The notes beneath the pieces were generated by a model, which was not told the DNA's origin, did not search any database, and was given only the letters and a program-made list of their open reading frames with translations. A DNA stretch of 64,000 nt from Calditrichota bacterium (GTDB lineage: Bacteria > Calditrichota > Calditrichia > Calditrichales > J004). The stretch is from NCBI GenBank assembly GCA_024277115.1, contig JAJRVW010000222.1, positions 27,738 through 91,737 on the forward strand, given 5' to 3'. This document shows positions 5,016-48,183 of the stretch, one piece after another; the first letter of the stretch is position 1; the number at the start of each line of letters is the position of its first letter. The translations under genes and the position numbers were made by a program.

Positions 5016-5405
5016 TTACCTTACAGATGCAAAAACTTCTTTTATTTTATCAATAAATGTGGGGAAAAAGAGGGGCTTCTCAAAAAAGATATCGCGGTGC
5101 TCTGTTAAAACTTCGCTAAAACCCATAGCGTGGGCCTAAACGATAAGCACTGGAATTTCTTTATATTCGGATTGTGTCATCCATTTATAAAAATCAATGC
5201 CATTCTCACCAGGCAACCCTACATCGGTTATAACCATATCAATATTCTTTTCGGCCAAAACTTTACGTGCGTCAATCGTATTCAGCACTATCTCCACCCG
5301 AAAACCTGCTTTTTCCAAAAATACTTTGCAGAGCAATCCGGCCTGATAATCATCATCGATATATAAAATAGTTTTGTTATTATTGTCCATAGTGTGATTC
5401 GCCAT
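5016..5405 (-). pseudogene. Single-domain CheY-like receiver interrupted by an in-frame TAG at 5136..5138
   Basis: The listed 89-aa ORF (5136..5405) ends ...IPVLIV then TAG. The same frame continues AHAMGFSEVLTEHRDIFFEKPLFFPTFIDKIKEVFASVR to a TAA at 5016..5018. Acidic pocket (YIDDD), phospho-Asp (MVITDVGLPG) and Lys (FEKP) are all intact. The TAG sits at the conserved Ser/Thr position. Confidence 0.7.
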
Positions 5406-5559
5406 TAAAACTTGTTGTAGTAAAAATATAGTTTTGTTATTTTCAGCTTTTTTAATACTGAAGTAGAGTTTTGTTCAAAACAAACGAAAATAACCAACTC
5501 CTGTTATCGTAACCAAATTAAATTTAATAATCTTTTTAAAATAGAAAATAAGGATTCGC

Positions 5560-8166
5560 ATGACATCCAATAAAATTCGTCAACAATTTATAGATTTCTT
5601 TAAGGATAAGCAACATACGTTTGTACCAAGCGCTTCCGTTGTCCCGTTGGACGACCCGACCCTTCTTTTTACCAATGCGGGGATGAACCAGTTTAAAGAT
5701 GTTTTTTTGGCCAAAGGGGAACGCAGTTATAAACGCGCTGCAAATTCCCAAAAGTGTATTAGGGTAAGCGGGAAACACAACGACCTGGAAGAAGTCGGGC
5801 ACGATACTTATCACCACACCTTTTTTGAAATGCTTGGCAATTGGTCCTTTGGGGATTATTACAAAAAAGAGGCCATCGCCTGGGCATGGGAACTTTTGAC
5901 CGAAGTTTGGAAATTACCCAAAGAGCGGCTTTATGCGACTGTTTTTGGCGGTGATGAAGGTGATGGGCTTGAAGCGGACACCGAAGCAGAAAAGCTATGG
6001 CAGGAAATGACAGATATTGACCACTCACATATTTTGCGTTGCAGCAAGGCCGACAATTTTTGGGAGATGGGCGCGACCGGGCCATGCGGGCCGTGTTCTG
6101 AAATCCATATTGACCTAACCCCGGACTTATCCGGAGGTAAACTGGTTAATGCCGGCGTACCGGAAGTGATTGAAATATGGAACCTGGTTTTTATCCAATA
6201 TAACCGTGATAAAAGTGGCAAGCTTTCCGATCTGCCGGCCAAACATGTGGATACAGGCGCCGGTTTTGAGCGTATTGTGGCCGTTATGCAAAATAAAAAC
6301 TCTAATTATGACACCGATGTGTTTATGCCCATCCTCGATGAAATTGGCAAACTGGTAGGCGAGGCCTATGAAAAAACAAAAGAACAAATTGCTTACCGGG
6401 TCATCGCCGATCATATCCGTATGCTTACTTTCTCTATCGCCGATGGTGGCCTACCCTCCAACGAAGGCCGTGGTTATGTGATGCGCCGTATATTAAGGCG
6501 CGCTGCGCGTTATGGGCGTAAACTTAATTTGCATGAGCCTTTTCTGTACAAACTTGTACCGGGACTGGTTGCACACATGGGCGATGCCTACCCGGAATTA
6601 AAAGAGCGCATGGATCATGTTATCAAAGTAATCCGTGCCGAAGAAGAACATTTTAACCGCACCCTGGACCGCGGGCTGGAAATTTTTGCCAAAATTGTAA
6701 ATCAGCTGGAACAAAAAAATGAAAAGACCATCCCGGGAGTTGACGTATTTAAACTTTATGATACCTTTGGTTTTCCGGTCGATTTAACAGCCCTGATGGC
6801 TGAAGAAAAAAATCTTGCCATAGATTTAGAAGGCTTTGAAAAAGAAATGAACAGTCAGCGCGAACGGGCACGGGCTGCCGCAAAATTTACGTCCCAAACC
6901 GTAAGCACCGATGCCTGGGTTGTGATGAACGCAGGTGATGATTCTGAATTCGTCGGTTACGAATATACTGAAGCCGACTCAAAAATCAGCCGCTATTACC
7001 AGGACGAGAATCATGTAAAGGTGCGCCTGATTAAAACACCTTTTTATGCAGAGTCCGGCGGGCAGGTTGGCGATAAAGGAACCATTGAGGGCGATGGGTT
7101 TAAACTAAATGTAATTGATACCCAGAAAGAAAATGATGCGATTATCCACATCTGTACACTTGATGGTGAATTTAATCCAAAATCAGATAAAATATTTGCG
7201 CGGGTTAATGAATCGGAACGCAGGCGTACACTTAAAAACCACACAGCTACGCACCTGCTGCAAGCCGCTTTACAACAAGTGCTGGGCGATCATGTTCACC
7301 AGTCCGGGTCTTTGGTAGAACCCGACCGGCTACGATTCGATTTTACCCATTTTGAAAAAGTAACAAATACAGAATTAACCGAGATCGAGCGCATAGTAAA
7401 CGAACAAATCCAAAAAGATACACACCTGGAAATAAGCCTTAAAAATATTGACGAGGCAAAGGCCGAAGGGGCCATGGCCTTATTTGGCGAAAAATACGGT
7501 GACATAGTACGAACTGTAAAAGTAGGTGATTACAGCCTGGAATTATGTGGTGGTACACATGTAAAAGGAACCGGGGAGATCGGCGCTTTTATAATCACTA
7601 CCGAAGAAGGTATTGCCGCCGGTGTGCGCCGCATCGAAGCGATAACCGGGCCTAAAGCCGTGGAATATTTCCAGAACGCCCGTAAGCGTGTTGGGGAAAT
7701 AAGCCAGCTGACAAACAGTCCCGAAAACAGTATTGCTGAAAAAGTGAAATCTTTGATAGAAGATAAAAAGGCGTTGGAAAAAGAGTTGGCACAAGCCAAA
7801 GCGGCACAATTAAGCGGCAACCTGGATGGCATCATCGATTCAGCTAAATCCATAAACGGCACGCAGGTAATCCTGCATAAGTTGGAAAATGTGGACATGA
7901 AAGCGCTTAAAGATTTGGGCGATAAAATCCGTGAAAAAGTAAAAAACACAGTCGGGCTAATTGCCTCGGTCAACGCGGACAAGCTGGCCTTTGTTGCCTT
8001 TGTAAGCGACGACCTTCTCAAAAAATATAAGGCGGGCGACCTGGTTCGTGAAGTTGCTAAAACAGCTGGCGGTGGTGGTGGCGGTAAACCACACATGGCC
8101 ACAGCAGGGGGAAAAGATGTAAGTAAATTGGATGCGGCGCTGACTCGCTTTAAAGAGCTGATTTAA
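5560..8166 (+). CDS. alaS: Alanine--tRNA ligase
   Basis: 868 aa, full length. Class II core (FTNAGMNQFK, KCIRVSGKHNDLEEVG), editing-domain HxxxH (HTATHLLQAAL) and C-terminal GGGGG(K) DHHA1-like tail. Confidence 0.97.
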   Translation: MTSNKIRQQFIDFFKDKQHTFVPSASVVPLDDPTLLFTNAGMNQFKDVFLAKGERSYKRAANSQKCIRVSGKHNDLEEVGHDTYHHTFFEMLGNWSFGDYYKKEAIAWAWELLTEVWKLPKERLYATVFGGDEGDGLEADTEAEKLWQEMTDIDHSHILRCSKADNFWEMGATGPCGPCSEIHIDLTPDLSGGKLVNAGVPEVIEIWNLVFIQYNRDKSGKLSDLPAKHVDTGAGFERIVAVMQNKNSNYDTDVFMPILDEIGKLVGEAYEKTKEQIAYRVIADHIRMLTFSIADGGLPSNEGRGYVMRRILRRAARYGRKLNLHEPFLYKLVPGLVAHMGDAYPELKERMDHVIKVIRAEEEHFNRTLDRGLEIFAKIVNQLEQKNEKTIPGVDVFKLYDTFGFPVDLTALMAEEKNLAIDLEGFEKEMNSQRERARAAAKFTSQTVSTDAWVVMNAGDDSEFVGYEYTEADSKISRYYQDENHVKVRLIKTPFYAESGGQVGDKGTIEGDGFKLNVIDTQKENDAIIHICTLDGEFNPKSDKIFARVNESERRRTLKNHTATHLLQAALQQVLGDHVHQSGSLVEPDRLRFDFTHFEKVTNTELTEIERIVNEQIQKDTHLEISLKNIDEAKAEGAMALFGEKYGDIVRTVKVGDYSLELCGGTHVKGTGEIGAFIITTEEGIAAGVRRIEAITGPKAVEYFQNARKRVGEISQLTNSPENSIAEKVKSLIEDKKALEKELAQAKAAQLSGNLDGIIDSAKSINGTQVILHKLENVDMKALKDLGDKIREKVKNTVGLIASVNADKLAFVAFVSDDLLKKYKAGDLVREVAKTAGGGGGGKPHMATAGGKDVSKLDAALTRFKELI

Positions 8167-8200
8167 AATGAACCTGCCCGTTTTACTGTATAAACTAATA

Positions 8201-8471
8201 ACCCGTTGTGCGAATTAGAATAGCATATTTGTTGATAATAGTTGTAAAACTTAAAAAGCAGGTCGTTCCTATGGAGCTTTTGCCAACATAGAAATTCATT
8301 TTTTCTACAAATAGGTCCTTCCTATCGGAATTTTTTATTTCGTCCTGTAAGGACGTTCTATTTGTAGTACAAAAATCAAAATAGTTTTCAAGAAGCTCCA
8401 TCGGAGCGGCCTATCGTAAAAATTTAGTTGAAATTATTTTGTTTCTATTTTTTCTAATTCGTACAACGGGT
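8201..8471. repeat. MITE-like ~270-bp palindromic element with 20-bp terminal inverted repeats
   Basis: acccgttgtgcgaattagaa (8201..8220) matches the reverse complement of ttctaattcgtacaacgggt (8452..8471) at 19/20. The interior is itself a nested imperfect palindrome: ctacaaatag...ctatttgtag, and ggtcgttcctatggagc vs gctccatcggagcggcc. It has no convincing coding capacity. Confidence 0.6.
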
Positions 8472-8496
8472 AAACAAATAAGAATAAACACCAAAA

Positions 8497-9069
8497 ATGA
8501 AAACCAGTAGATTAGAAGCTTTCAGCGATGGTGTACTCGCAATTATTATCACCATTATGGTGCTGGAACTAAAAGTGCCGGAGGGTGATAATTTATATGC
8601 GTTGCTTCACAAAACGCCTGTATTTATAAGTTATCTCATAAGTTTTATTTATATTGGGATTTACTGGAACAACCACCATCATCTTTTCCAAATTACGGAA
8701 AAAGTAAACGGGCGTATCCTTTGGGCCAACCTGCACCTGCTTTTTTGGCTCTCCCTTATCCCTTTTGCCACAGCCTGGATAGGCGAGAACCATCATGCAT
8801 CCGCACCTTACACACTTTACGGAATTATCTTATTAATGTGTGGCTTTGCATTTTATATCCTGCTTGGTTCTATCTTAAAACATCACGAAAAAGATTTTGC
8901 CCTGAGAGAATCGATTGGAAAAGGCATCAAAGATAAGCTTTCCCTGCTCATTTATCTTATTGGGATTATCCTTTCTTTTTATTCCTCCCTTGCAGCGACG
9001 GCATGCTATATCGGCGTAGCTATAATATGGATTATACCCGATAAAAGAGTCGAAAAAAATTATAAATAA
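8497..9069 (+). CDS. TMEM175/DUF1211 family membrane protein (putative K+ channel)
   Basis: N-terminal RLEAFSDGVLAIIITIMVLEL signature and six predicted hydrophobic helices. Confidence 0.8.
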   Translation: MKTSRLEAFSDGVLAIIITIMVLELKVPEGDNLYALLHKTPVFISYLISFIYIGIYWNNHHHLFQITEKVNGRILWANLHLLFWLSLIPFATAWIGENHHASAPYTLYGIILLMCGFAFYILLGSILKHHEKDFALRESIGKGIKDKLSLLIYLIGIILSFYSSLAATACYIGVAIIWIIPDKRVEKNYK

Positions 9070-9169: not shown

Positions 9170-9700
9170 ATGGAAAAAGGGCTTTTAGAGAAAACCGGGA
9201 AAAGTTTAGACCACTGGATAAAAGTTGTTCGGGCCACGAAAATTGAGAAGCATGGCGAGATCATCAAATTCTTAAAAGCAGAACACGGCTTTACCCACGG
9301 TTTTGCAAATTTTGTCTCGTTAAAAGCACGGGCTGCCGATGCAGCGTCATTTGATGAAAAAGATTTGATCGAGGCGCAATACAAAGGCAAAGAATCTTTG
9401 AAACCCATTTATGAACACATTTTAGGCGAAGTAAAAAAGTTTGGGGACGATGTTGAAGTTGCAACAAAAAAAGCAAATGTAAGCCTCAAAACCAAAAAAC
9501 AATTTGCCCTTGTCCAACCTTCCACAAAAACGCGGATTGACCTCGGGTTAAAATTAAAAGGAAAAGAACCGCAAGGCCGCCTTGAAAACTCCGGACCTTT
9601 TGGCGCCATGTGTACCCACCGTATAAAACTATCCCAGGTTTCTGAAGTTGACGCAGAGGTAATCAATTATCTAAAAGAAGCTTACGGGCAATCACACTAG
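9170..9700 (+). CDS. DUF4287/DUF5655 domain protein
   Basis: N-terminus ...KTGKSLDHWIKVVRATKIEKHGEIIKFLKAEHGFTHGFANFV is typical of DUF4287. TAG stop. Confidence 0.7.
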   Translation: MEKGLLEKTGKSLDHWIKVVRATKIEKHGEIIKFLKAEHGFTHGFANFVSLKARAADAASFDEKDLIEAQYKGKESLKPIYEHILGEVKKFGDDVEVATKKANVSLKTKKQFALVQPSTKTRIDLGLKLKGKEPQGRLENSGPFGAMCTHRIKLSQVSEVDAEVINYLKEAYGQSH

Positions 9701-10911: not shown

Positions 10912-10923
10912 TTAAAAGATAAG

Positions 10924-12020
10924 TTATTTTATAACCGAAATATATTTATAGCCGCCATTATGCCCATAAAAAAACTGTTTCTTTTCAGCATTAAACCATA
11001 AAGCAGGCCGTATTACCCAATCCGCCTCAAAAGAAATCCGTGCAATCTCTTTGGCCTGCATATCCAGGCTTATTAATGTATTGTTAACAAATTGCCACGG
11101 GCTAAAACTATCTTTTTTATTTAGCATTGTTTCCGCTGTTTGTAGCATTAATATCCCATTATCGGAAAATGCCTCGGCCACGATAATCCGTTCTTCATCG
11201 GCTAAATTAAAAACACCTGCCTTTTTATTTGATTTTAAGTCTACCAATTCCAGGTTACTTTTATCAATAAAAACAACCCGGCTACTTTGCGGGTTGAAAA
11301 CCAAACGACGCGAACGCATTGCAGATTCGAATAATTGTTCCCCTTTTTCATCCAAAACGATTGTCTTAAAACGGATTGGATCGCCCTGTTTATAGAGTGA
11401 TGCCGCAAAATATTTCTTATCGGGAGAAAGGGCAACGGCACGGATTTGCCATCCATCATAAAAGTTGTCAAAAACGATTTTATTTTGCAGCGTCCTTAAA
11501 ACAAGGTGTATACCTTGCGCAGAATAAACGCCGGTAAACAGCAGTTCAAAATCCTCTGAAACGGCGCCATAAAAGACCTGCTCTGCGTTATATTTTTCAT
11601 TTTTCAATAAACTAAAACGTCTTAGTTCCTTACCTTGTCCATCATAAACCTGAACATGATTGCCCCCATTTACGGCAACAACTTTGGTACCATTTCAGCC
11701 ACAAAAAAATCCGGGAAGCGTTCATCATAATCCCATTTTATTTTAGTTTGGGCAATTTTTACTTTTTCTTTGGAATACCAATCTATTTTAATATTCGGAT
11801 TGGCTTCTTTTTTCAACTGATAGATTAAACCATACGCATCACTTTGCACATAAAGTACATTTAAAATATTATCCTGTTGGATATCTTGCGAGGTTAAGGC
11901 CTTTCCGCTATTGGTCCAAGCCAAAACATTTACTTTTGTTTTTTCTGCATGTTCGATCGAAACCTTCTCCGAACAACCCAAAAACAAAATTGATTGCACC
12001 AAGAAAATTTTAATTTTCAT
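10924..12020 (-). pseudogene. Putative lipoprotein, reading frame broken by a 1-nt frameshift near 11673..11695
   Basis: ORF 11670..12020 starts with a lipoprotein-like signal (MKIKIFLVQSILFLGCSE). The frame of ORF 10924..11607 is open and coding-like upstream of its TTG (NGTKVVAVNGGNHVQVYDGQGKELRRFSLL). One extra A in either short A-run (gctgAAAtgg or accAAAgtt) would fuse the two ORFs. Confidence 0.55.
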
Positions 12021-22335: not shown

Positions 22336-22931
22336 TTACACCCACATCCACTGAAAACCTTTGAAGGCAACCCACCCCAAAACGGCTCCCGGGGCCAAAT
22401 CATAAAAATAGTGTTGTTTTGTATAGAGGGCGCTTAAGGCAATGAGCAGCGGGAAAATCCAGGCCCAGGGCGCAAGAAAAGGCGCATTGTAAATTAAATG
22501 CAGGGATGTTAAAGTCGCGACACTCACATGCATACTCGGGAAACAATTGGAACGCGCGTCGATACTTTGTACCAATTTTAAAAACCGGACGCTCACACTT
22601 TTACTTTTTGGCAATTCACGCCAATGGTGCGGCGTTACAACCGGCACGAGGATAAAAAAGGCCATTTGCATGAGCATCAGCATAAAAAACTGATCGCCAT
22701 ATAATTAAACTGGCGCATATCCTGAACCACATAAATAAGCAAAACAATAACCGGGTAATACAAGCCCGAATAAACATAAACCCAGCCCGGCCTCATTTTA
22801 AAAAATGCGTCGATGCGCGTGGCCTTAAACTCACGCGCTTCCCGGAAACTGTTTTTTTGCGTCCAGAAATAGAACTGGTAGATACCGATGATCAGGATAA
22901 TTGTAATTAAAAAACAAACCAGGTAATCCAT
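22336..22931 (-). pseudogene. PAP2-superfamily membrane phosphatase/transferase split by a frameshift at a T6 run
   Basis: ORFs 22677..22931 and 22336..22683 overlap by 7 nt. PAP2-like motifs FPSMHVSVA and HYFYD lie in the downstream part. On the coding strand ...ATC AGT TTTTTT ATG CTG..., one extra T (plus-strand A-run 22684..22689) would join AISFF-MLMLMQMAFFIL. Confidence 0.6.
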
Positions 22932-23740: not shown

Positions 23741-26215
23741 TTATTTTATATTAAGGGGAAAACTTAAAATAAAAACGGTCCCTTCGCCCAATTTGCTTTC
23801 AACCTCAATTGTCCCTTTGTGCGCCTTTACTACATGGGCAACCAAACTTAACCCCAACCCCACACCACCGGAACTTTGGACACTTTCATCCTGCGAACGA
23901 TAAAATGTATCAAAGATGTGCTGCTGATCCTCGTTCGAAATTCCAATGCCCATATCGGCAATTTTAATAATCACGTGGCCATCTTTCAATTCTGTAGATA
24001 TGTGTATTTCTTTTTGTTTATCAGAATACTTAATCGAGTTCGTCAGAACATTTATAAAACCCGAACAAAGCGCATCTTCGTCGGCAGATAAAATTATATC
24101 TTTTTCTAAAAAGTCGGTTTTAACTCTAAATTGACGTTGCTTAAACTGATAATCCATTAGGTGCAGGACATCTTTTAGCACCTTGTTTAAACTGATTTCC
24201 CTAAAATTATAAGCCGTGTTTCCTCGTTCAATCTTTGAAAAATCCAATACGTTTTTTATTAAACGCGAGAGTCGTGCACTTTCGCCTTCAATAATTTTTA
24301 AATATTCTTTTTGTTTTTCTTTTGGGATATTTTCTTTTTCAGCCAATAACTCGGCAAACATTTTGATGGAAGTTAGCGGCGATTGCAAATCATGCGAAAC
24401 ACCGGAGACGAAATAGGATTTTAGACGGTTGAGCTCGTTTAACCTTTCTGTTTCAAGATTTTTTAACAGAAGCTGTTTTTGAAGCTCTGTTCTTTGCAAG
24501 GCCAAACCAAGTTGAATTCCAATTGTTTTTAAAAGGTCTATATCTTCGAGCGTAAATTTTTGCCCGGACTTTTTACGGCCCAAAATCAACATCCCGATTA
24601 TTTCTGCCGTTGGGGATTTTAACGGGACTATCAAACATTTACCGGCTATCTTTAAATTTTTCTTATCCAGCGCTTCAAACGGAATGCCTGATTCCAACAT
24701 ATTAAAATAACTTAAAACAGCCTTTGATGAGTTTTGCGCATAAACAACCAAATCGTCGATTATCTCCCCGGGAAATCGGCCAAAATTTTTACTTGCTGAT
24801 ATTTCCCACACACCTTGTTCGTTTTTTATATAAAATCCGGAAAATTTCACCTGCAATAAATCGTCTATCCGGCGGATTGTCATTTGTACGATGCTTTCTT
24901 TATCCAGGCTTGTGTTTAATTCCTGTGTAAATTTTTGTTGTGCAAGACGATAATTATAACGCACCCTGAAAAATTTCTGATCAACCATTTTTTGCAGAAA
25001 ACGGCGTAGGGGTTCAAATATCAACGGTGTTAGGATGGCCGCCACTACCGTTGTAACCAGCGATGACTCTACTGTAATAAAACCAATAAACAAAACAGAA
25101 AGTCCAACCAGCGCGGCATACATCACCAAAAGGATTAATGCTGTGAAAAAATAAACCGAGCTTCTACGGAAAATATGGTCAATATCGAAAACATGGTATT
25201 TCACAATCGCGATACTAAAAGTAACCGGGACAATTAACATTACAAGAACAATTGTAAACTCTGGAACGATTAAATCAACCGAGAAAACCTGAGGTAGCTG
25301 CCACAAAAAAACAAACGCCGGCGGCCCAATCGCCAGACCAAAAACGACCCAGCGTATCTGCCTGCGCTCCGATTCCTCCTGCGCATGAATTGAAGAATGA
25401 AAAATATTTGCCACGCCAAAGGTCATAGCCACGGCAAAATAGAGGCGGTTTAAATTAAATGCGGTTAGAAGGTGGTTAAACCAATCAAGCGAAACAGTGG
25501 AAGAAGCCATCAGGAACGTACCGCAAAGCGTAATGGCCAATGCCGTCGAGAAACCATATAAAAGATAGCTTAGCTTTTTTAAATTTTGCCATTTATAACG
25601 CGGGAAAACAAAACTTAGATGGATAAATAACGAAGGCACAAAAGCATAGGCAATAAAGAAAAACAATCGTGTAAACTGCCCGATACTAAACTCCCCGGCA
25701 GAATATGTTCCCCATGTTGAGGTGATTATAATTGCCGTCCCAACAGAAGCCCAATGCCAAACATTGGCCATTACAAGTTCCGGGCGTTTGTAGATGACAA
25801 AAACCCCAAAAATAAAAAAGATCAGCCCTACAATGGTTTGGGCGGTGTTATCGATCCAATTATAGTAAAAAGGAAGTTCGATTTTTAAATGGATTTGCTG
25901 CCCATGACGAAGGACTAAAAAGGAAACAATATCACCTTCTGAATAGGAATCCAGGACAAATTCAATCTCTTCTTTGGAGGAAATAGCATGGCCTGCAATG
26001 GCAATAAGTTTGTCCCCCGTTGCAAAATATTTGGTTAGTCCGGGCGAGATAATTTTATTTACATACAACCCGTCTTTTTCCACATTAAAAGAAATATGTT
26101 TTTCGGGGCTGAGGCCGGCCTTTTGTATAATCCGGGTGAGCCCAAGGATGCAAATAATAAGGAGTAAAAAATCTACAACAAATATACGGGAAAGTTTTTT
26201 CCTTAAGTCGTCCAT
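23741..26215 (-). CDS. Sensor histidine kinase (PDZ-like, multi-TM, GAF-like, HisKA, HATPase_c)
   Basis: N-terminal PDZ-like segment (GDKLIAIAGHAISSKEEIEFVL). About 8 hydrophobic helices. H-box YFVSGVSHDLQSPLTSI. ATPase boxes NVLTNSIKYS, DMGIGIS, GGVGLGLSLV. Confidence 0.85.
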   Translation of the reverse strand: MDDLRKKLSRIFVVDFLLLIICILGLTRIIQKAGLSPEKHISFNVEKDGLYVNKIISPGLTKYFATGDKLIAIAGHAISSKEEIEFVLDSYSEGDIVSFLVLRHGQQIHLKIELPFYYNWIDNTAQTIVGLIFFIFGVFVIYKRPELVMANVWHWASVGTAIIITSTWGTYSAGEFSIGQFTRLFFFIAYAFVPSLFIHLSFVFPRYKWQNLKKLSYLLYGFSTALAITLCGTFLMASSTVSLDWFNHLLTAFNLNRLYFAVAMTFGVANIFHSSIHAQEESERRQIRWVVFGLAIGPPAFVFLWQLPQVFSVDLIVPEFTIVLVMLIVPVTFSIAIVKYHVFDIDHIFRRSSVYFFTALILLVMYAALVGLSVLFIGFITVESSLVTTVVAAILTPLIFEPLRRFLQKMVDQKFFRVRYNYRLAQQKFTQELNTSLDKESIVQMTIRRIDDLLQVKFSGFYIKNEQGVWEISASKNFGRFPGEIIDDLVVYAQNSSKAVLSYFNMLESGIPFEALDKKNLKIAGKCLIVPLKSPTAEIIGMLILGRKKSGQKFTLEDIDLLKTIGIQLGLALQRTELQKQLLLKNLETERLNELNRLKSYFVSGVSHDLQSPLTSIKMFAELLAEKENIPKEKQKEYLKIIEGESARLSRLIKNVLDFSKIERGNTAYNFREISLNKVLKDVLHLMDYQFKQRQFRVKTDFLEKDIILSADEDALCSGFINVLTNSIKYSDKQKEIHISTELKDGHVIIKIADMGIGISNEDQQHIFDTFYRSQDESVQSSGGVGLGLSLVAHVVKAHKGTIEVESKLGEGTVFILSFPLNIK

Positions 26216-26270: not shown

Positions 26271-26989
26271 ATGGCGGGTAGGAGCTGACTCCTGTTAGCA
26301 AATATTAATTTAGACCATAACCTGTTGAAGGATGGTTTGCGCACTTGGGAAAGTGCCTCTACCTTCAGGCCAGGCACAGTAATACATATCAAAACGTACT
26401 TTGGAAACCACACTTACCGGCATCTGCATATTTTTCCCGGCAGATGATTCCTTCCGCATCTCGGATTCAACAAAAAAAGGTAGGAGCTGACTCCTGTCAG
26501 CGAATATTAATTTAGACCATAACCTGCGGAAGGATGATTTGCGCACTTGGGAAAGTGCTTCTACCTTCAGGCCAGGCACAGTAATACATATCAAAACGTA
26601 CTTTGGAAACCACGCCTACCGGCATCTGCATATTTTTCCCGGCAGATGATTCCTTCCGCCTATCGGATTCAACAAAAAAGGTAGGCGCTGACTCCTGTCA
26701 GCGAATATTAAATTTATATCATAACCTGCTGAAGGATGGTTTGCGCACTTAGGAAAGTGCTCCTACCTTCAGGCCAGGCGCTGTAATACATTTCAAAACG
26801 TACTTTGGAAACCACGCTTGCCGGCAGATGATTCCTTCCGCCTATCGGATTCAACAAAAAAGGTAGGAGCTGACTCCTGTCAGCGAATATTAATTTAGAC
26901 CATAACCTGCTGAAGGATGGTTTGCGCGCTTAGGAAAGTGCTCCTGCATTATAGATTCTCTCGCTTTGGAAAGCGCTCCTACCCGCCAT
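26271..26989. repeat. Tandem array of ~200-bp non-coding units (about 3.6 copies) bracketed by a 15-bp inverted repeat
   Basis: Units begin with ggtagg at 26277, 26479, 26680 and 26862 (periods 202, 201, 182). atggcgggtaggagc (26271..26285) is the exact reverse complement of gctcctacccgccat (26975..26989). Conserved hairpins occur in every unit. Confidence 0.9.
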
Positions 26990-26996: not shown

Positions 26997-28457
26997 TTAT
27001 TCCCAGGTGGTGCCTTCGCGTGTATCTTTTAGGGTTATGCCCAATTCTGTAAGCTTATTTCGTATTTCATCGGCCAGGGCAAAGTTTTTCTCCGCGCGTA
27101 GTTGTGCCCGTAAACTGATCAATAATTCCATTACACCGTCCATTTTATCAGAGGAAGTTTCCTCTTTCTCAAAACTCTCCGGCAATAAACCCAGCACATC
27201 ATCTAAAAGGGATTTTAAAACGGATGTCAGTTTTTCCAGCGTTGGGACTGATAACTTATCAGGCTCGCGTTCAATCCAGGAAGCTGTTTTTTTGATAAAA
27301 TCAAATGTGGCCGCAATAGCGCGCGGTGTGTTAAAATCATCATCCATCGCCTCTTGAAAAGCAGCTTCATAAGCTTCAATCTCTTTTTCAAAAGCGTCGT
27401 CTGTTTTTTCGGATAAAGCTTTGGAAGTAAAAACCTTTTCCACAACCGTATATATTTTTTGCAACCCTTTTTCTGCCGCTTGCAGTGCTGTTTCGCTAAA
27501 ATCGAGCGTGGCGCGGTAATGACTGGTTAAAATAAAAAATCGAATAGCCAGTGGCGGATAGCTCTCTAAGGCCGCTTTTAAGGTTTTAAAATTCCCCAGC
27601 GATTTGCCCATTTTCACACCATCGACATTGACCATATTATTGTGCATCCAGTACTTCACAAAAGGTTTGCCATTGGCCGCCTCACTTTGGGCAATTTCCG
27701 ATTCATGATGCGGGAATTTGTTTTCCATACCGCCACCGTGGATATCGAAAGTCTCGCCCAAATATTTGTTGGACATGCAGGAGCATTCCAAATGCCAGCC
27801 GGGATAGCCTTTGCCCCAGGGACTGTTCCAGCGCATCAGATGGGTTGGATCGGCTTTTTTCCAGAGGGCAAAATCCGCCGCGTTGCGTTTATCGCTTTTT
27901 ACCTCAACACGGTGCCCTTCACGCATTTCATCCACCGAGCGGCCAGATAGCTTGCCATAATCCTTAAACTTTTCCACCTCAAAATAAACATTGCCATCGG
28001 CCTCGTAGGCATACCCTTTTTCCATCAAAGTTTGGATCATCTCCACTTGCTCCGGGATATGACCGGATGCCCGCGGTGAAATATCCGGGCGCAACACATT
28101 TAAAACATCCATGTCCTCAAAATAACTTCGGGTATAATTTTCAACCACTTCCATCGGCTCCAATCGCTCCAACCGGGCCTGCTCGGCAATTTTATCTTCG
28201 CCCTCGTCCGCGTCACTTTGCAGATGGCCCACATCGGTAATATTTTGAACATAGCGCACCTTATACCCCAAATGCCTGAAATAACGCACGATCACATCAA
28301 AGCTGATGTAACTTTTGGCATGGCCCAAATGCGAATCGCCATAAACCGTTGGCCCGCATACATAAATGCCTACAAAACCCGGGTTGATGGGAACAAATTC
28401 TTCTTTTTTACGAGAGAGCGTGTTGTATAAAACCAGATTGTTTTCTTTTAAGCCCAT
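26997..28457 (-). CDS. cysS: Cysteine--tRNA ligase
   Basis: Class I HIGH (GDSHLGHA) and KMSKS (KMGKSLGN) motifs. Full length, 486 aa. Confidence 0.97.
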
Positions 28458-28459: not shown

Positions 28460-29431
28460 TTATTTTATCGCTTCCTGTACTATTTTTTCAACTAATTTTT
28501 CAAAGCTATATCCCGCCTCTTTGGCCGCCTTTGGGAATAAACTTGTTTCGGTCATGCCCGGTAATGTGTTAGCCTCCAATATATTCAGCCGATTCTCTTC
28601 ATCCACCAAAAAATCAATCCGTGCGTAACCTTTGCAGCCTAACAGTCCGTACATTTTGCAAGCATAGTCTTGTATTTTTTCCGTTATTTTTTGATCTAAT
28701 TGTGCGGGCACCTCATAGCTGCTCATGCCCGGCGTATATTTGCATTCGTAATCGTACATATCGTGTGTTGGTTTGATATGCACCAAAGGCAACGCTTGCC
28801 CGTCCAACACACCGGCCGCAATTTCTTTACCAGAGATAAATTCCTCGATTAAAACTTTTTTTCCATATTCAAAGGCAAATTTAAGGGCCTCTTCCATTTT
28901 GTCATCATTTTGTAAAACCGTATGTCCCAACGACGAGCCACCATCAGCCGGTTTAACAATCACCGGGAAATTCAGTTCTTTTAAATTGATTGTTTCATCG
29001 GCGTTGCGGACAGCAATTGATTTTGCTGTGGGCAGGCAGGCTTGCAGCAAAATCATCTTGGAAATCTCTTTATCCATGGCAAGCATGCAGGCCATAGCGC
29101 TCGATCCGGTATATTTTATTTTTAAAGTATCGAGTAAGGTTTGGACCACGCCATTTTCACCATCGCCGCCATGCAGGCCATTAAAAACCAGATCAATGTT
29201 TAACTGGGAGAGTAAAAACAGCTTTGCGTACAGGCCATGCTTTTCTTCAAAACCAGGCATGTTTCCGGGACGAATCTCCAGATCGGCCACAAGTTTTTGC
29301 AAAGGGAGCCCGGTATCGATTGCAAAGACTTTGTGCCCTAATTTCCTCAGGGCATCAACTATATTTTTACCTGAATCCAAAGAGACATCCCGTTCGGGAG
29401 ATGTCCCGCCCAATAAAACGGCTATTTTCAT
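28460..29431 (-). CDS. ddl: D-alanine--D-alanine ligase
   Basis: An internal Met gives the canonical N-terminus MKIAVLLGGTSPERDVSL. ATP-grasp motifs are present. The longer listed ORF would overlap the glnS 3' end. Confidence 0.92.
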   Translation of the reverse strand: MKIAVLLGGTSPERDVSLDSGKNIVDALRKLGHKVFAIDTGLPLQKLVADLEIRPGNMPGFEEKHGLYAKLFLLSQLNIDLVFNGLHGGDGENGVVQTLLDTLKIKYTGSSAMACMLAMDKEISKMILLQACLPTAKSIAVRNADETINLKELNFPVIVKPADGGSSLGHTVLQNDDKMEEALKFAFEYGKKVLIEEFISGKEIAAGVLDGQALPLVHIKPTHDMYDYECKYTPGMSSYEVPAQLDQKITEKIQDYACKMYGLLGCKGYARIDFLVDEENRLNILEANTLPGMTETSLFPKAAKEAGYSFEKLVEKIVQEAIK

Positions 29432-29477
29432 ATTCTTTTCTTTATGGTATTGCAGAGACAAAATGCATCCCCACGGT

Positions 29478-31166
29478 TTATCCGTTTTTCTTCGCCCAGC
29501 TATCGCGTAAACCGACCGTTTTATTAAATATAGGTGCACCCGGCTTGGAATCCACCGAATCAACGAAAAAATAACCTTGGCGTAAAAACTGAAAATACAT
29601 GCCGGCCTGCGCATCTTTTAAACTCGGCTCGGTTTTGGCCGTAATCACTTTTAACGAATCAGGGTTAAGGCATTCCTCAATCTCACCTTTATCCGGTTCC
29701 GGCTCGGTAAAAAGATGATCATATAAACGCACTTCGGCATTGTATGCATGCTCGATTGAAACCCAGTGCAATGTCCCTTTAACTTTGCGCCCATCATCCG
29801 ACCAGCCACCACGGGTTGCCGGATCGTATGAGCAACGCAATTCTATAATTTTGCCGTTTTCATCCTTGATCACATCCGTACAGGTGATGTAGTAAGCATG
29901 TTTTAAACGCACTTCTTTGCCCGGGGCCAGGCGGAAATATTTACGAGGCGCGTCTTCCATAAAATCATTGCGCTCAATATAAATCTCCCGGGAGAATGGT
30001 ACAGTCCGCTTGCCGGCGCTTTCATCCTCAGGATTATTGACGGCTTCCAATTCTTCCGTTTGGCCTTCGGGATAATTTTCAATCACAACTTTAATGGGGT
30101 CCAAAACAGCCATTACACGCAGGGCCCGTTTGTTCAGGTCCTCCCGTAAACTTGCATAAAGTTGGGCAATATCCACGAGGCTATTGGCCTTTGCCACGCC
30201 CACGCCATCACTAAAGTTACGGATCGCTTCCGGTGTATAACCCCGTCTGCGCAGTCCTGCAATTGTAGGCATTCGCGGATCGTCCCAGCCTGTAACAAAC
30301 TTATCCTGTACAAGTTTTAATAACTTACGCTTGCTCATAACTGTGTAGGATAAATTCAGCCGGGCAAATTCAATCTGCCGTGGATGGTGGATGCCAAGCT
30401 GCTCTACAAACCAATTATACAAAGGCCGATGGTCTTCAAATTCCAAAGTGCAGATGGAATGGCTGATGCCCTCGATTGAATCGGACTGGCCATGCGCCCA
30501 ATCGTACATGGGGTAAATTTTCCATTTGTCGCCCGTACGGTGGTGGTGCACTTTTAAGATACGGTACATAACCGGGTCGCGCATATTTAGGTTTGGTGAG
30601 GACATATCAATTTTTGCCCGTAAAACTTTTGAGCCTTCATCAAACTCGCCACGGGTCATTTTTTCAAACAGTTCCAAATTCTCCTCAACAGAACGGTCAC
30701 GATACGGGCTGTTTTTTCCGGGCTTGGTTAAGGTGCCCCGATATTCCCGGATTTCTTCGGCATTCAAATCTTCCACATAAGCCTTGCCCGCTTTTATAAG
30801 CTGGATGGCATAAGCATGTAATTGGTCAAAATAATCTGAAGCATAAAACTCTGTTTCGCCCCAATCAAATCCAAGCCATTTCACATCTTCTTTTATGGAA
30901 CGGACATATTCGTCTTCTTCCTTGCTGGGATTTGTATCATCGAAACGTAAATTGCACACGGCATTGTACGACTCGGCCAATCCAAAATTTAAACAAATGG
31001 ATTTTGCATGACCAATGTGCAGGTAGCCGTTGGGTTCCGGTGGAAAACGGGTGTGTACTTTTTTATATTGCCCCGCTTTCAAATCTTCTTCAATAAAAGT
31101 ACGGATGAAGTTTGATGGGGATTTAGTTTCTTCGTTTGTCGTATTTTTTTCGTTCATTTTACTCAT
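29478..31166 (-). CDS. glnS: Glutamine--tRNA ligase
   Basis: [17 protein letters not shown] (HIGH) and VMSKRKL (KMSKS). The C-terminal anticodon-binding beta-barrels are present. Start chosen at MSKMNEKN; the upstream ATG at 31253 is also possible. Confidence 0.94.
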
Positions 31167-31270
31167 TGTTTTTTTTGGGTTAAAACCCTGATTATTAGAG
31201 TTAAGTTTATCACCTCGCCATTTATGACAGGGATACCATGGCCTATAGAACAATGTCTTTAGCCCAACAT

Positions 31271-32719
31271 TTACACATATTTTTCCAAAGCCTGCTGTAC
31301 AAAACTACACACTTTTTCTTTACCAAAAACATCGATGACCAAAGGTAAGTCCGGGCCGGATTCTGCGCCTGTCAGCGCCACACGCACCGGTTTCCATAGG
31401 AAGGGGCCTTTGATCCCTTTTTCTTTTTGGATTTCTTTCATCACGGGCTTAAACGCATCTGAGTCAAGGTGGCCCAATGTATTAACTTTTTCTAAAAATG
31501 TTTCCAGAACTGCGCGGGCCGTTTCTTCTTTTAAAATATCCAGGGCTTCCTTCTCGTCAATTTCCAACACATCATTGATAAATATTTTGGCTGCCGTTTT
31601 AACATCGGTGGCTTTCTCGATACGTTTCTGCACAGCAAGGCAAATTTTTGCAGTCTTCTCCTTGTCTGAAGTATCAATGCCGGCATCTTCTAAAAAGGGT
31701 TGTAAAAATTCAACCAATTGCCCTTCATCCAAAGTACGGATATAATAGCCGTTCATCCATTCCAGTTTGGAAATATCAAAAACAGCGCCGGCCTTATTTA
31801 CCCGTTCCAGCGAAAAAGCTTCAATTAGTTCTTCCATGCTAAATATTTCCTGATCCGTTCCATCGCCGGGGCTCCAACCAATAAGCGCCACAAAATTTAC
31901 TAAAGCCTGCGGTAAAAATCCTTTGCTACGATAATCCTCCACGGCCACATCGCCCTGCCGTTTACTCAACTTGGAACGGTCTTCATTTAATAAAAGGGGC
32001 AGATGGGCAAACTGCGGTAAATCCCATCGAAAAAACTGGTACAGTAAAACATGTTTGGGCGTGCTTGGCAACCATTCTTCACCACGGATAACATGGGTTA
32101 TTTTCATAAGATGGTCATCCACAACATTGGCCAGGTGGTATGTTGGGAAACCATCACTTTTTAAAATGACCTGATCGTCCAGAACTTCATTCTGAAAAAC
32201 AACTTCGCCACGAACAATGTCATTTACGATAGTTTCACCTGTCTGTGGCACTTTTAGGCGAACCACATATTGATCCGTTTTCATCCTTTGCTCAGCTTTG
32301 TCTTTTGGATAATCACGATAACGGCCATCATATTTTGGGTCCTGGCCGGCAGCAATCTGCTCTTCGCGCATTTTTTCCAATTCTTCGGATGTGGCAAAAC
32401 AAGGGTAGGCTTTGTCTTCGTCCATCAATTGCTGCACATATTTTTTATAAATATCCAGGCGTTTCGATTGTTTATAAGGGCCATAATCGCCCGGATTGTC
32501 AATGCTTTCATCAAAAGAAATCCCGGGCCATTCCATCGTATCGATCAGGTTTTCGATAGCCCCTTCTACAAAACGCGCCTGGTCAGTATCTTCGATACGC
32601 AACACACACGTACCATTATTTTTTTTTGCAAACAGGTAATTATACAGCGCCGTTCTTAAACTCCCAATATGCACAAACCCGGTCGGGCTTGGCGCAAACC
32701 TTACACGAACATCAGACAT
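31271..32719 (-). CDS. gltX: Glutamate--tRNA ligase
   Basis: [19 protein letters not shown] (HIGH-type) and KLSKRQG (KMSKS). 482 aa. Confidence 0.96.
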
Positions 32720-33448: not shown

Positions 33449-34480
33449 CTAGTAAATAAACATTGCATCGCCATAACTGTGAAAGCGGTATTTTTGCTTG
33501 ACCGCTTTTTTGTAGGCCTTCATCATTGTGTCTTTATCAGAAAACGCACAAGACAATAAGAAAAGTGTAGAGCCCGATACATGGAAATTTGTAATCAGTG
33601 CATCAACCACTTTAAAGGTATAAGGCGGATGGATATATTTATCCGTCCATCCCGAATTTGCCTTTACAAATTTATCGACCGTGGCAACCGTTTCCAGCAC
33701 ACGTACGGTTGTTGTGCCTACTGCGACTATCCGGCCACCTTTGCGCTTCACTTCATTGATTTGCTCTTCCGATTCACGCGACAACTCATAATATTCAGAA
33801 TCCATCTGGTGACGGCCTAAATCTTCAACCTGTATCGGACGAAAAGTGCCAAGGCCAACATGCAATGTTAAAGGAATTATTTTAACTCCTTTGGCTTTCA
33901 ACTTTTCCAGTAAATCTTCGGTAAAATGCAAACCAGCTGTTGGGGCAGCTACCGCGCCAATTTTCTGCGCATAAACGGTTTGGTATTTTTCTTTATCAAG
34001 CTCTTCGGCTTCCCTCTTGATATACGGCGGTAAAGGCGATTTACCTACTCTGCCGATCAGGTTAAAAAAGTCTTCGCCATTATAATCGAAACGGACTACG
34101 CGGCCACCTGAGGTTGTGTTGTCAATAACATCACAACCCAAATCGTCGGTAATCTGGATACGGTTGCCCACACGTACTTTCCGTGCTGGTTTTACCAAAA
34201 CTTCCCACATGGTAGATGCAAGTTGCCTCAAAAGAAGCAGTTCAACCTTTGCATCTGTTTTATCTTTTACACCAAAGATGCGCGCCGGAAAAACTTTTGT
34301 TTCGTTCACCACCAACGCATCGCCCTCTTTAAAATAATCAACAATATCTTTGAAAATCTTATCTTCAAGAGTGGAGTCCTTCCGATTGACGACCATGAGT
34401 TTGGACTCATCACGCACATCCACGGGATATTGCGCAACCAGTTTCTTGGGTACGTCAAATTGTATTTCAGAAAGTTTCAT
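33449..34480 (-). CDS. queA: S-adenosylmethionine:tRNA ribosyltransferase-isomerase
   Basis: Full-length QueA pattern (FDVPKKLVAQYP, PLPPYIKR, VAAPTAGLHFT, GTTTVR, FHSYGDAMFI). It ends in TAG. Confidence 0.95.
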   Translation of the reverse strand: MKLSEIQFDVPKKLVAQYPVDVRDESKLMVVNRKDSTLEDKIFKDIVDYFKEGDALVVNETKVFPARIFGVKDKTDAKVELLLLRQLASTMWEVLVKPARKVRVGNRIQITDDLGCDVIDNTTSGGRVVRFDYNGEDFFNLIGRVGKSPLPPYIKREAEELDKEKYQTVYAQKIGAVAAPTAGLHFTEDLLEKLKAKGVKIIPLTLHVGLGTFRPIQVEDLGRHQMDSEYYELSRESEEQINEVKRKGGRIVAVGTTTVRVLETVATVDKFVKANSGWTDKYIHPPYTFKVVDALITNFHVSGSTLFLLSCAFSDKDTMMKAYKKAVKQKYRFHSYGDAMFIY

Positions 34481-35539: not shown

Positions 35540-36136
35540 TTAAATTACCTGTAAGGCCTGTTTTAATAAATCTTCAACAATCTTTAATTTTTCGGTTTTC
35601 TGCGCTTTTTCAATCGCTTTATTTGCCGCAATCCGTGTATACCCAAGCGACATTAGCGCCATCATCGCTTCTTGTTCAACACCGTTCAAAGTCTTTTCTG
35701 TACGATTTATTCCCTGGCCGGCCGTTACTTCTAACTTTCCAAATTTATCTTGCAGCTCCACCACAAGCCGTTGCGCCGTCTTCTTGCCAACCCCGGAAAT
35801 TGTATTTAAAGTCTTCTCATCGCCCGTCTGGATCGCATGTATCAGCTCATCGGGCGTTAATCCTGATAAAATTGTTTGGGCGAGTTTTGGCCCGATCCCG
35901 GAAATAGAAAGCAGGCTTAGGAAGACCTCTCTTTCCCGTACCTCAAAAAAACCGTACAACTGTAAAACATCTTCACGTACATGAAGATAGCTCATCAATT
36001 TTATCTTGTCACCCGCCTGGGGAATATGTTTAAAGGTAGATAAAGATATTTTAAGGAGATAACCAACGCCACTAACATCCAGTACAACTTCTGTAGGTTT
36101 TTTAGAATCTATAATCCCATTTATATATTAATACAT
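35540..36136 (-). CDS. ruvA: Holliday junction DNA-binding protein RuvA, with in-frame TAA as codon 3 (36128..36130)
   Basis: The listed ORF (TTG at 35998) lacks the OB-fold N-terminus. The same frame upstream reads ATG TAT TAA TAT ATA AAT GGG... = [30 protein letters not shown]. This is the canonical RuvA N-terminus. The ATG (36134..36136) overlaps the ruvC stop as TAATG. Confidence 0.8.
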
Positions 36137-44555: not shown

Positions 44556-44601
44556 AAATGCCCTTTCCCCCGGCCATTGTCTTGATTTTATTTTATACTT
44601 A

Positions 44602-46038
44602 TTACCCCAGCTTCTTGCGCAAAATCTCATTTGTTTGCCTTGGATCGGCCTTGCCTTTGGAAGCTTTCATTACTGAACCCACAAAAAAGCCAATAAGTTT
44701 CATTTCACCGTTTTTATAGCGTTCCACCTGTGCCGGATTTTCTGCAAGCACCTGGTCAATCAGCTTATCCAGCTCGCTGCTATCCGAGATTTGCGAGAGC
44801 CCTTCCTGCTCAATGATTTGCGCAACACTTAGGTCAGATTCGACCATTTTCTCAAAAACAGTTTTTGCCGCACTGCCGCTTATTGTTTTTTCTTCGATGG
44901 ACTTTAATAAATCGGATAACCTTGTCGGCGTAACACTAAGCTTGCCAATCTCAACTTTTTGTTGATTGACCAGGCGCATCACCTCGCCCATTATCCAGTT
45001 GCTTGCCAGTTTTGCATTGGCTACATTTTTAACGGTTGCCTCAAAATAGTCGGCCACCTCTTTGGACGCGGTCAATACCTCCGCATCATATTCGGGGATT
45101 TTATACTGCGACACAAAGCGGTTACTTTTTGCGTCAGGCAATTCGGGCAAGGCTTGATAAATGTCATCCAGCCAAAGTTGTTCAATTATTACCGGCACAA
45201 GATCGGGATCGGGGAAATAGCGATAATCATGCGAGTCTTCTTTACCACGCATGGATTTGGCCACATTTTTAACCGGGTCCCACAAAAGTGTTTCCTGTAA
45301 AATAGTTCCGCCATCCTCAAGGATATATTTTTGGCGTTTAATTTCATATTCCAAAGCACGTTCCACATTGCGGATGGAGTTCATATTTTTAAGCTCGGCT
45401 TTGGTACCAAGCTCTTTTTGTCCTACCGGACGCAGGCTGATATTGGCATCGCAGCGCAAACTGCCCTCGTCCATATTCCCATCACAAATGCCGAGGTAGC
45501 GCACAAGTTGACGTATTTTTGTAAGATAGGCGGCGGCTTCTTTGGGCGAGCGCATATCCGGCTCGCTTACAATCTCGATAAGCGGCGTACCACAACGGTT
45601 TAGGTCAATCAGCGTTTCATTTTTACTGACATAACTTTCATCATGTACAGATTTCCCTGCATCTTCTTCCATGTGGATGCGTGTAATGCCGATGCGTTTT
45701 TCCGTACCATCCACATTTATATCCAAATAGCCATGTTCGCAAATGGGCTCGTCAAACTGTGAAATTTGATACGCTTTGGGCGAATCGGGATAAAAATAGT
45801 TTTTACGGGCAAATGTATTTATACGGTTAATTTGCGAGTTTGTAGCAAAGCCCATTTTGATGGCATACTCGACCACCTTTTTATTGAGAACGGGCAATAC
45901 GCCGGGCATCCCCAGGCAAACCGGGCAAACCTGCGAATTGGGTTCGGCACCAAATTGCGTACTGCACCCGCAAAATATTTTTGAATTTGTTGAAAGTTGG
46001 GCGTGTACCTCAAGCCCAATTACGACTTCGTAGTTCAT
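44602..46038 (-). CDS. gatB: Asp/Glu-tRNA amidotransferase subunit B
   Basis: [19 protein letters not shown]...[12 protein letters not shown], and the C-terminal YqeY-like tail. Confidence 0.96.
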
Positions 46039-46207
46039 TTTAATCTCTTACATAAATAGATTTTATTTTTATTATCCTGCACAAATATAGAACAGACTGA
46101 TCAAATCCAATTAAAAACCATAGGGATAATTAAAGCTATAAATGATTTGCCCCTTTAAAATCGTGGGATTCAAAAAACAAATAATTAATGAATCGAGTAT
46201 AAACAAG

Positions 46208-46760
46208 TTCCCCCTTAACGAAGGGGGTTAGGGGGTTGTCCATTACTACTAGAAAGTCCATTTATTAGGGGCTTATCCTACTCCTCAGAGCTTCAATCTT
46301 ATCAGCTATAACTTGGAGTGTACCATCTATTTGTTTTATTACATAATGCCCGTCAAAACGGATTATTTCTAATCCAATCTCCCTCAAGATACTTTCTCTC
46401 TGCAAATCATATTTTTGTTTTCCATCGTGGGTAATTCCATCTATTTCAATTACCAGATGTAATTTGCTACAATAAAAATCAACTATATAATTATCAATGG
46501 GTTTTTGCCTTGTAAACTTACACCCAAGCAGCTGACTGTTTTTAAGATGTTTCCAAAGTAACCGTTCGCCGAATGTAGCATTCTTTCTTAGCTCTTTGGC
46601 ACGTTCTTTTAGTTTTGTATTATAGTAGATTTTCAATTGATGAATGAATTATTATTTATTTAAATACTTCTCAATTTCAAATTTAATTTTAAAATTGACC
46701 TTTCAAGATACTCCTTTACCGTCGTCTGACAACCCCCTAGCCCCCTTTGTTAAGGGGGAA
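46208..46760. mobile_element. DUF559 endonuclease cassette bounded by 33-bp inverted repeats
   Basis: ttcccccttaacgaagggggttagggggttgtc (46208..46240) matches the reverse complement of gacaaccccctagccccctttgttaagggggaa (46728..46760) at 31/33. Each arm contains its own ccccctt/aaggggg hairpin. The interior looks AT-rich relative to the flanks. Confidence 0.5.
46265..46636 (-). CDS. DUF559 (Vsr-like) endonuclease domain protein
   Basis: ERLLWKHLKNSQLLGCKFTRQKPIDNYIVDFYC...LVIEIDGITH...D..RESILREIGLEIIRF is the DUF559 pattern. Confidence 0.8.
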   Translation of the reverse strand: MKIYYNTKLKERAKELRKNATFGERLLWKHLKNSQLLGCKFTRQKPIDNYIVDFYCSKLHLVIEIDGITHDGKQKYDLQRESILREIGLEIIRFDGHYVIKQIDGTLQVIADKIEALRSRISP

Positions 46761-46770
46761 TTGATTCTTT

Positions 46771-48183
46771 TTATAATTTTTCTATAAAAGTGCCCAAATC
46801 AAAAAGGGCCTGCTCGTTAAAAGCCCTGGCCTGAAGCTGAAGCCCAAAAGGCATTCTGTTGGAATGCATCCCGGCAGGAATACTAATCCCGCAAATGCCG
46901 GCCAGGTTTGCCGAAACAGTATAAATATCCTGTAAATACATGGAAAGCGGGTCATCGGATTTCTCGCCAATCTTAAAAGCAGTGGTTGGCGTAGTTGGCG
47001 ATAAAATTACATCACATTTTTTGAAAGCCGTATCAAAATCATTTTTTAATAAACGACGGACCTGCTGTGCTTTTTTATAATAGGCATCGTAGTAGCCGGC
47101 AGAGAGCACATAAGTACCCAATAAAATACGCCGTTGTACCTCCTCACCAAATCCTTCGCTACGCGTTTTTTCATACATATCGGTCAAGCCCGTCCCTTCA
47201 TCGATACGCATACCATAATGCACCCCGTCAAAGCGAGAGAGATTGGACGACGCTTCGGCTGTGGCAATAATATAATAAATGGCGATGGCATATTCGGCCG
47301 TAGCAAGATCAATCTCCACAAGTTCCGCGCCCTTTTCTTTTAAGCGGTCGGTAATCTGTACTATCCGGGATTTAATTTCCGGATCGAGACCATCGGCAAA
47401 ATACTGTTTTGGGAGGCCAATTTTTAAACCGGTAACACTACTGTTTTTTTGATTAATATAATCGGGTACGGTAATATCCGCAGAAGTAGAATCCAACACA
47501 TCATGCCCGGCAATGGCATTTAACACAAAAGCCGTATCTTGGGTAAAATTGCCAAATATTCCAATCTGGTCCAGCGAAGACGCAAAAGCGACAAGCCCGT
47601 AACGGGATAATCGCCCATAAGAAGGTTTTAATCCCACTGTGCCTGTAAAAGAAGCAGGCTGCCTAACCGAACCACCCGTATCACTGCCCAGCGCTATATC
47701 AGCGCAACCCGTTGCAACCGCTACTGCCGAGCCGCCACTGGAACCACCAGGTACCATTTCCGGGTTATGGGGATTTTTAACCGGGCCAAAAGCTGAGTTT
47801 TCGTTGGAAGAGCCCATAGCAAACTCATCAAGATTGGTTTTTCCAATGATGAGGGCATCTTCGGTTTTCAGTTTTGTTACCACCGTTGCATTATACGGCG
47901 ATTTAAACTCACCAAGGATTTTACTTCCGCAAGTGGTGATTTCATCTTTAATATTTATGTTGTCTTTAATGGCAATAACCAAACCGGCCAGTGCGCCAAC
48001 CTTTTCACCGGCCTTAATTTTACGATCAATCTAGACTGCTTTTAAACGAGTTTTTTCCGGGAAGGTGTTTAAAAAAATATTTAAACATTTATTTTCTTCA
48101 ATCTTTTCAAAGCAATCATTTAGATGATTAACCGCCGAAAGTTTACCGTTTTTAATGGCCTGGACAATTTCTGTTGCCTGCAT
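46771..48183 (-). CDS. gatA: Asp/Glu-tRNA amidotransferase subunit A, with in-frame TAG at 48031..48033
   Basis: The listed ORF begins at an internal TTG (GLVIAIKDN). The same frame upstream reads MQATEIVQAIKNGKLSAVNHLNDCFEKIEENKCLNIFLNTFPEKTRLKAV*IDRKIKAGEKVGALAG from the ATG at 48181..48183. This is the normal GatA N-terminus. Amidase signature GGSSGGSAVAVA is present. Confidence 0.85.

Follow-up and report, generated by a model that had tools for sequence, protein, structure and literature searches.

Single in-frame stop codons in conserved bacterial genes are met with in genomes that reassign or suppress a stop codon, in nonsense pseudogenes and as sequencing artefacts. A defect of MutY or MutM leaves a nonsense spectrum that consists of G:C>T:A changes only. 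Oxidation of guanine during library preparation is a documented source of G>T/C>A artefacts (PMC3616734). Here, we analyzed 64,000 nucleotides (nt) of contig JAJRVW010000222.1, part of a draft metagenome-assembled genome (MAG) of an uncultured member of the Calditrichota (assembly GCA_024277115.1). This whole stretch, referred to as the window, has a G+C content of ∼41%. Three of its genes, gatA, ruvA and a gene for a single-domain CheY-like receiver, are each interrupted by one in-frame stop codon. Comparison with related sequences suggests that the three stops are probably consensus-level errors of the draft MAG, of the type caused by damaged guanine; we put the probability of this reading at roughly 0.6.

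Five contigs from metagenome 3300082588 of the Joint Genome Institute (JGI) were used as near relatives (L001, L002, L003, L004 and L020). All five show synteny with the window, with nucleotide identities of 85-94%. As outgroup we took a more distant MAG, GCA_008501795.1, together with its Logan assembly (L005, L006). Homologues of the GatA and receiver proteins of the window were almost all found in MAGs of the Calditrichota/Calditrichaeota.

The interrupted genes and their stops

The features are as follows.

46771..48183, minus strand: gatA, 470 codons with a single in-frame stop
48031..48033, minus strand: in-frame TAG of gatA, codon 51
5016..5390, minus strand: single-domain CheY-like receiver gene, 124 codons with a single in-frame stop
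5136..5138, minus strand: in-frame TAG of the receiver gene, codon 85
35540..36136, minus strand: ruvA, 198 codons with a single in-frame stop
36128..36130, minus strand: in-frame TAA of ruvA, codon 3

With the stops masked, family models align across each of the three sites: TIGR00132 covers residues 8-469 of GatA (model positions 3-462 of 466, 622 bits), PF00072 residues 13-116 of the receiver (model positions 1-105 of 111) and TIGR00084 residues 1-196 of RuvA (model positions 1-202 of 202). RuvA_N, HHH_5 and RuvA_C were all matched in the ruvA product. Beyond the single stop, no further stop or frameshift was found in any of the three genes, and the original prediction of exactly one in-frame stop in each was borne out. 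The truncated products are already present in protein databases, as a GatA fragment of 403 amino acids (aa; P0002) and a receiver fragment of 89 aa (P0148), which are derived from one NCBI contig of 112,141 nt. Thus, the stops belong to the deposited record and were not made by extraction of the window.

Ancestral sense codons are found at all three sites in the relatives with 85-94% nucleotide identity, which supports an error in the consensus of the window. GatA of the window shares 94% aa identity with an intact 474-aa orthologue on L001 (P0001), where the codon at the site is GAG (Glu) and not TAG, which makes the change a coding-strand G>T. The stop is located inside a 480-nt stretch with only three differences from L001. 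In an alignment of 40 homologues this column is variable and mostly acidic (E in 17, D in 8, A in 5, N in 4, and others). The receiver shares 89% aa identity with an intact 124-aa protein (P0122), and its stop falls into a near-invariant column, Ser in 14 of the 14 aligned homologues shown, within the motif LIVSAHA. L002 and L003 have TCG (Ser) where the window has TAG, a C>A change on the coding strand. The stop of ruvC and the start codon of ruvA share 1 nt (TAATG). The gene begins with ATG TAT GAA TAT ATA in L001 and with ATG TAT TAA TAT ATA in the window; codon 3 has changed from GAA (Glu) to TAA by a coding-strand G>T. The earlier claim of a ruvA interruption is therefore confirmed, yet the lesion lies at the very start of the gene and does not split it in the middle. 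No canonical in-frame start was found before codon 47. Codons 5, 8 and 9 are ATA/ATT, and the alignment of solved RuvA structures mostly begins no earlier than residue 5; this lesion is therefore the most likely of the three to be tolerated.

On the window branch, non-synonymous and synonymous changes amounted to 10:28 in gatA (7:26 in the sister lineage) and to 1:20 in the receiver gene (2:14 in the sister lineage). These values are like those of the sister lineage, so purifying selection lasted until the stop arose, and the lesions are very recent or artefactual. Neither a raised ratio of non-synonymous to synonymous substitution rates nor several lesions per gene, both typical of decaying pseudogenes, were found in gatA and the receiver gene. 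The sole hint of decay is codon 322 of gatA (47218..47220), which is CAT (His) in the window and CGT in L001. The column affected by this R322H change holds Arg in 40 of 40 aligned homologues (motif DGVRYG). Unlike the G>T transversion of the stop codon, R322H results from a G>A transition; it is possibly a second inactivating change in gatA.

In the original prediction the interrupted genes were called essential. This is overstated for gatA, because a glutaminyl-tRNA synthetase (GlnRS) is encoded in the window:

29478..31253: glnS, the GlnRS gene, with tRNA-synt_1c and Gln-type C-terminal domains

Given GlnRS and the glutamyl-tRNA synthetase (GluRS) encoded beside it, GatCAB is probably needed only, at most, for Asn-tRNA. 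The GlnRS and GluRS genes adjoin (29478..32719), in a genome that also retains gatA and gatB. If the gatA stop were real, the earliest restart would be a TTG codon yielding 403 aa, six residues ahead of the AIKDN lysine.

Stop codon usage and decoding

The 62 genes of the window end in TAA (50 genes), TAG (7 genes) or TGA (5 genes). The TAA share of 81% corrects the earlier figure of about 85%. All five TAG terminators that had been named before, at 33449, 57851, 9700, 10562 and 18667, hold, and two more end the gene at 8195..8401 and a CotH-family gene ending at 60218. A genuine TAG-ended gene is

9170..9700, plus strand: gene for a 176-aa protein; length, C-terminus and TAG all as in the L002 orthologue

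Where orthologues were available, TAG and TGA terminators were located at the same C-terminus, the stop codon of the orthologue sometimes being another. Indeed, a global reassignment of TAG, earlier regarded as unlikely, is excluded by the seven TAG-ended genes, whose C-termini are common to orthologues. TAA is the main terminator in the relatives as well (65-85% in L001, L002, L005 and L006, against 81% in the window, at ∼41% G+C), and TAA-rich termination appears to be a trait of the lineage.

None of the three in-frame stops is shared by L001-L006; wherever a site is covered, a sense codon was found (GAG and GAT; TCG and TCT; GAA). The stops align to Glu (gatA TAG), Ser (receiver TAG) and Glu (ruvA TAA), so that TAG would need two different meanings. 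A reassigned codon seldom terminates, stands for one amino acid and has its in-frame occurrences shared by relatives; in the window, none of these three properties was observed. Programmed read-through would call for a conserved stop together with a conserved stimulatory context or structure; the stops are not conserved in the relatives and the window contains no Rfam element. Likewise, searches of the 64-kb window for tRNA genes and for Rfam families found none. The base following each stop is A (TAG-A), G (TAG-G) or T (TAA-T) and none of these is a known leaky context, as judged from termination contexts in E. coli.

The stops could in principle be real and decoded, by a suppressor tRNA, weakened release factors, programmed read-through or a partial change of the code. 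All that suggests this is the presence of single stops in three otherwise intact, selected genes, and we regard it as very improbable. TAG and TAA terminate 7 and 50 genes of the window, at the same C-termini as in orthologues; the in-frame stops are of two kinds, and no single meaning fits both Glu and a near-invariant Ser. The suppression or read-through raised in the original prediction gained nothing from our analysis: the stops are absent from relatives, the amino acids aligned with the two TAGs differ and the window is devoid of tRNA genes. Equally improbable is a reading in which the stops are majority alleles of a natural Calditrichota population and a suppressor tRNA or leaky termination encoded elsewhere reads TAG and TAA through at low level. 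Were it true, gatA and ruvA would stay functional and the population could carry oxidative (G:C>T:A) nonsense alleles. As far as the window allows, reassignment, recoding of the pyrrolysine type and conserved programmed read-through can be excluded. The organism is taken to use the standard bacterial code, with the three stops predicted not to be decoded.

Substitution spectrum, frameshifts and origin of the lesions

All three stops are single G:C>T:A transversions (GAG>TAG in gatA, GAA>TAA in ruvA and TCG>TAG in the receiver gene). Judging by the codons present in the genes compared, changes of this class make up 28% of the possible single-step nonsense changes under a uniform spectrum and ∼12% when weighted by the synonymous spectrum of the window lineage. 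The probability that three of three stops belong to it is 0.022 and 0.0019, respectively. The stops do not resemble a draw from the ordinary mutational input of the lineage, and their uniform class points to one specific damage or error process.

A wider layer of such changes was searched for in 7,910 aligned codons, in which differences were polarised by comparing the window with a near relative and an outgroup. In this three-taxon comparison, window-specific G:C>T:A changes were 10 non-synonymous (2 stops included) to 21 synonymous, versus 4:27 in the sister lineage (p = 0.064). Around gatA-gatB, a comparison of four genomes gave non-synonymous to synonymous counts of 4:0 versus 5:12 (p = 0.021). 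The other substitution classes exhibited no non-synonymous shift (p = 0.39). Three G:C>T:A differences are found within 57 nt by the ruvA stop and two within 55 nt by the gatA stop; spatial clustering of this class was not significant (p = 0.27 and 0.15). When the comparison was limited to near-identical segments, three segments with 11 differences were left, too few to judge. With these small numbers, the data fit a thin, unselected, G:C>T:A-specific layer of at most ∼1 change per 2.5-3 kb, of which the stops would be the visible tip.

Three further genes of the window are broken by frameshifts.

10924..12020, minus strand: hypothetical gene with a -1 frameshift, lesion near 11693..11698 (A3, versus A4 in L002)
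22336..22931, minus strand: PAP2 phosphatase gene with a -1 frameshift, T6 at 22684..22689 (T7 in L020)
60218..62571, minus strand: CotH-family gene with a -1 frameshift, A7 run at 62291..62297

These are the three 1-nt frameshifts that had been reported before; all of them are deletions of 1 nt in homopolymers (A7, T6 and A3) and, as stated then, form a lesion class separate from the stops. The 370-aa orthologue of the hypothetical gene in L002 matches two reading frames of the window, with a 1-nt gap in the alignment, and addition of one A results in a single open reading frame (ORF) of 365 aa. In the PAP2 gene the Pfam model PAP2_3 is matched from position 70 onward, at residue 3 of the downstream ORF. 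The gene is intact in L020 (198 aa), and one added T restores the ORF of the window. Similarly, the CotH model is matched from position 63 onward, at residue 1 of the downstream ORF, and with A8 the gene becomes a single ORF of 784 aa; for this gene there was no relative to compare. The overlap of ddl (28460..29614) with glnS was also considered as a frameshift and rejected, as the Pfam domains begin ∼63-65 residues in and the ORF call is over-long.

Relatives allowed a comparison for 39 genes, of which 4 are disrupted in the window, versus none in the closest relatives (0 of 39, p = 0.058); with the outgroup added, the relatives have 0 of 75 (p = 0.012). Overall, 6 of the 62 window genes are disrupted, core and accessory genes alike, which is about one gene in ten and corresponds to ∼1 gene-breaking lesion per 10 kb. 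The coding density of the window is normal and no signs of genome decay were seen.

Alternatively, the lesions may be real, very recent loss-of-function alleles that had reached majority frequency in the sampled population and were captured by the assembler. A defect in the repair of 8-oxoguanine (8-oxoG; a MutY/MutM-type mutator), oxidative stress or a bottleneck are examples of settings for this. We regard this as the main rival explanation, possible but less likely than consensus error. A spectrum of G:C>T:A stops only is what a MutY/MutM defect would give, and the equal number of nonsense and frameshift lesions (3:3) is closer to the spectra of natural pseudogenes than to long-read error. 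Homopolymer differences also lack the bias that sequencing error predicts. Individual genes fit as well: gatA has a window-specific change at an invariant Arg (R322H), the presence of GlnRS may make GatCAB partly dispensable, and the codon-3 stop of ruvA might be bypassed by a start at a nearby ATA/ATT. However, a mutator burst that produced three stops should have added ∼25 G:C>T:A missense changes, and the window has a handful at most. Although 6 of 62 genes including core genes are broken, neither is the non-synonymous load raised nor the coding density abnormal. Stops in gatA and ruvA should be the first to be purged by selection, yet the lesions seem to take no account of gene importance. 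In the databases searched, these alleles were not found in a second assembly.

Consensus error is the most economical reading, because the lesions are minimal, unique to one assembly, blind to gene importance, devoid of decay signs and accompanied by homopolymer deletions. As is to be expected of such errors, other error classes occur alongside, and the genes hit (gatA, ruvA, the receiver gene, the PAP2 and CotH genes and the hypothetical gene) differ in importance. Three independent single-base G:C>T:A changes, confined to this one draft assembly, would have arisen when guanine damage (8-oxoG-like) or G/T miscalls led to substituted bases, and low effective template coverage would have let these bases become consensus. 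We infer that the origin of the stops lies outside the cells, in vitro or in silico. Sequence error or heterogeneity of the population, favored in the original prediction, is still the leading explanation.

Several observations weigh against consensus error. No overall excess of substitutions was found: window-specific differences are 115 non-synonymous and 573 synonymous, versus 109 and 610 specific to the relative. Any error layer must therefore be thin. Nor is there a global excess of window-specific G:C>T:A changes (31 vs 31 polarised, 347 vs 334 unpolarised), and with so few extra missense changes three stops are somewhat above expectation. Oxidative artefacts seldom reach consensus, and a contig of 112 kb speaks against very low coverage. 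R322H at an invariant column could equally mean true decay of gatA. Finally, intergenic homopolymer runs of the window are not consistently shorter than their counterparts in the relatives. A long-read error profile, our first idea, was weakened by this lack of bias to shorter runs.

The gatA region has a mosaic structure. Over the first ∼480 nt (47825..48304), identity is ∼99% to L001 but only ∼75% to L004, and later parts are nearer to L004 than to L001. This indicates that co-occurring strains have recombined or, possibly, that strains were mixed in the assembly. The mosaic, together with the presence of several related strains within one metagenome, would be in line with an assembly chimera, in which bases from co-occurring strains were combined one by one into codons of no real cell. 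For the stops themselves we regard such an origin as improbable. The gatA TAG is located well inside the L001-like block, away from the junction, and the alleles seen at the three sites lack the T or A that mixing would need to produce a stop.

Neighboring features, significance and known systems

A gene for a 123-aa DUF559 protein (Vsr-like endonuclease fold; 46265..46636) separates gatA from gatB. L004 carries it as well (86% aa identity), and it is missing from L001, whose gatA and gatB overlap. The junction is occupied in L005 by a 357-aa ORF without a Pfam match and appears to be a variable insertion point in the lineage. The stop-bearing receiver gene is one of four consecutive receiver-domain genes (1532..5390), the others encoding a hybrid kinase, an HDOD/HD protein and an HD_5 (HD-GYP-like) protein. 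This dense signaling cluster is conserved in L002 and L006.

A tandem repeat was observed at 26277..26942, between cysS (26997..28457) and the gene for a PDZ-GAF histidine kinase (23741..26215). It comprises 3.4 copies of a 202-nt unit with 90% matches, and copies are found at the equivalent place in L020. Each unit starts with GGTAGGAGC, and a complementary GCTYCTACC follows ∼80 nt downstream. The repeat had no match in Rfam even at E<=1, and its fold z-score was only -2.5 on the plus strand and -1.7 on the minus strand. A 94-aa ORF within the repeat (26310..26594), without a Pfam match, is probably spurious. An 824-aa histidine kinase was compared with metagenome and genome collections, where only distant relatives were found (25-44% identity).

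The pattern is an ordinary one and of a known kind, namely draft-assembly lesions or very recent knockouts. Its main value lies in quality control: truncated gene calls from this assembly, of which those of gatA and the receiver gene are already in protein databases (P0002, P0148), are not to be taken as gene loss or recoding. The uniform G:C>T:A class of the stops is the one useful detail for holders of the reads. If the lesions were real, they would be the record of an environmental mutator or an oxidatively stressed population, which would be of modest interest.

In-frame stops in conserved genes are shared with systems of reassignment or suppression, such as pyrrolysine at TAG, TAG-recoded phages and codes 4 and 25 for TGA. 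In contrast to these, the same codons are the usual terminators here, and the stops are unique to one assembly, involve two stop codons and map to different amino acids. Bacterial nonsense and frameshift pseudogenes, including those of MutY/MutM mutators, are closer: single-nt inactivating lesions in otherwise intact genes, G:C>T:A changes and homopolymer slippage are found in both. The window differs from them in that missense changes are not increased, second lesions are missing (with R322H as a possible exception), coding density is normal and core genes are hit. Artefacts of 8-oxoG (Costello et al. 2013, PMC3616734) normally have a low allele fraction and would reach the consensus only with very low effective coverage or few amplified template molecules. 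They leave the three homopolymer deletions unexplained, and their defining trait is a read-orientation bias. In line with such artefacts, the stops of the window are exclusively G:C>T:A, fall on conserved residues and core genes as unselected lesions do, and are confined to one data set.

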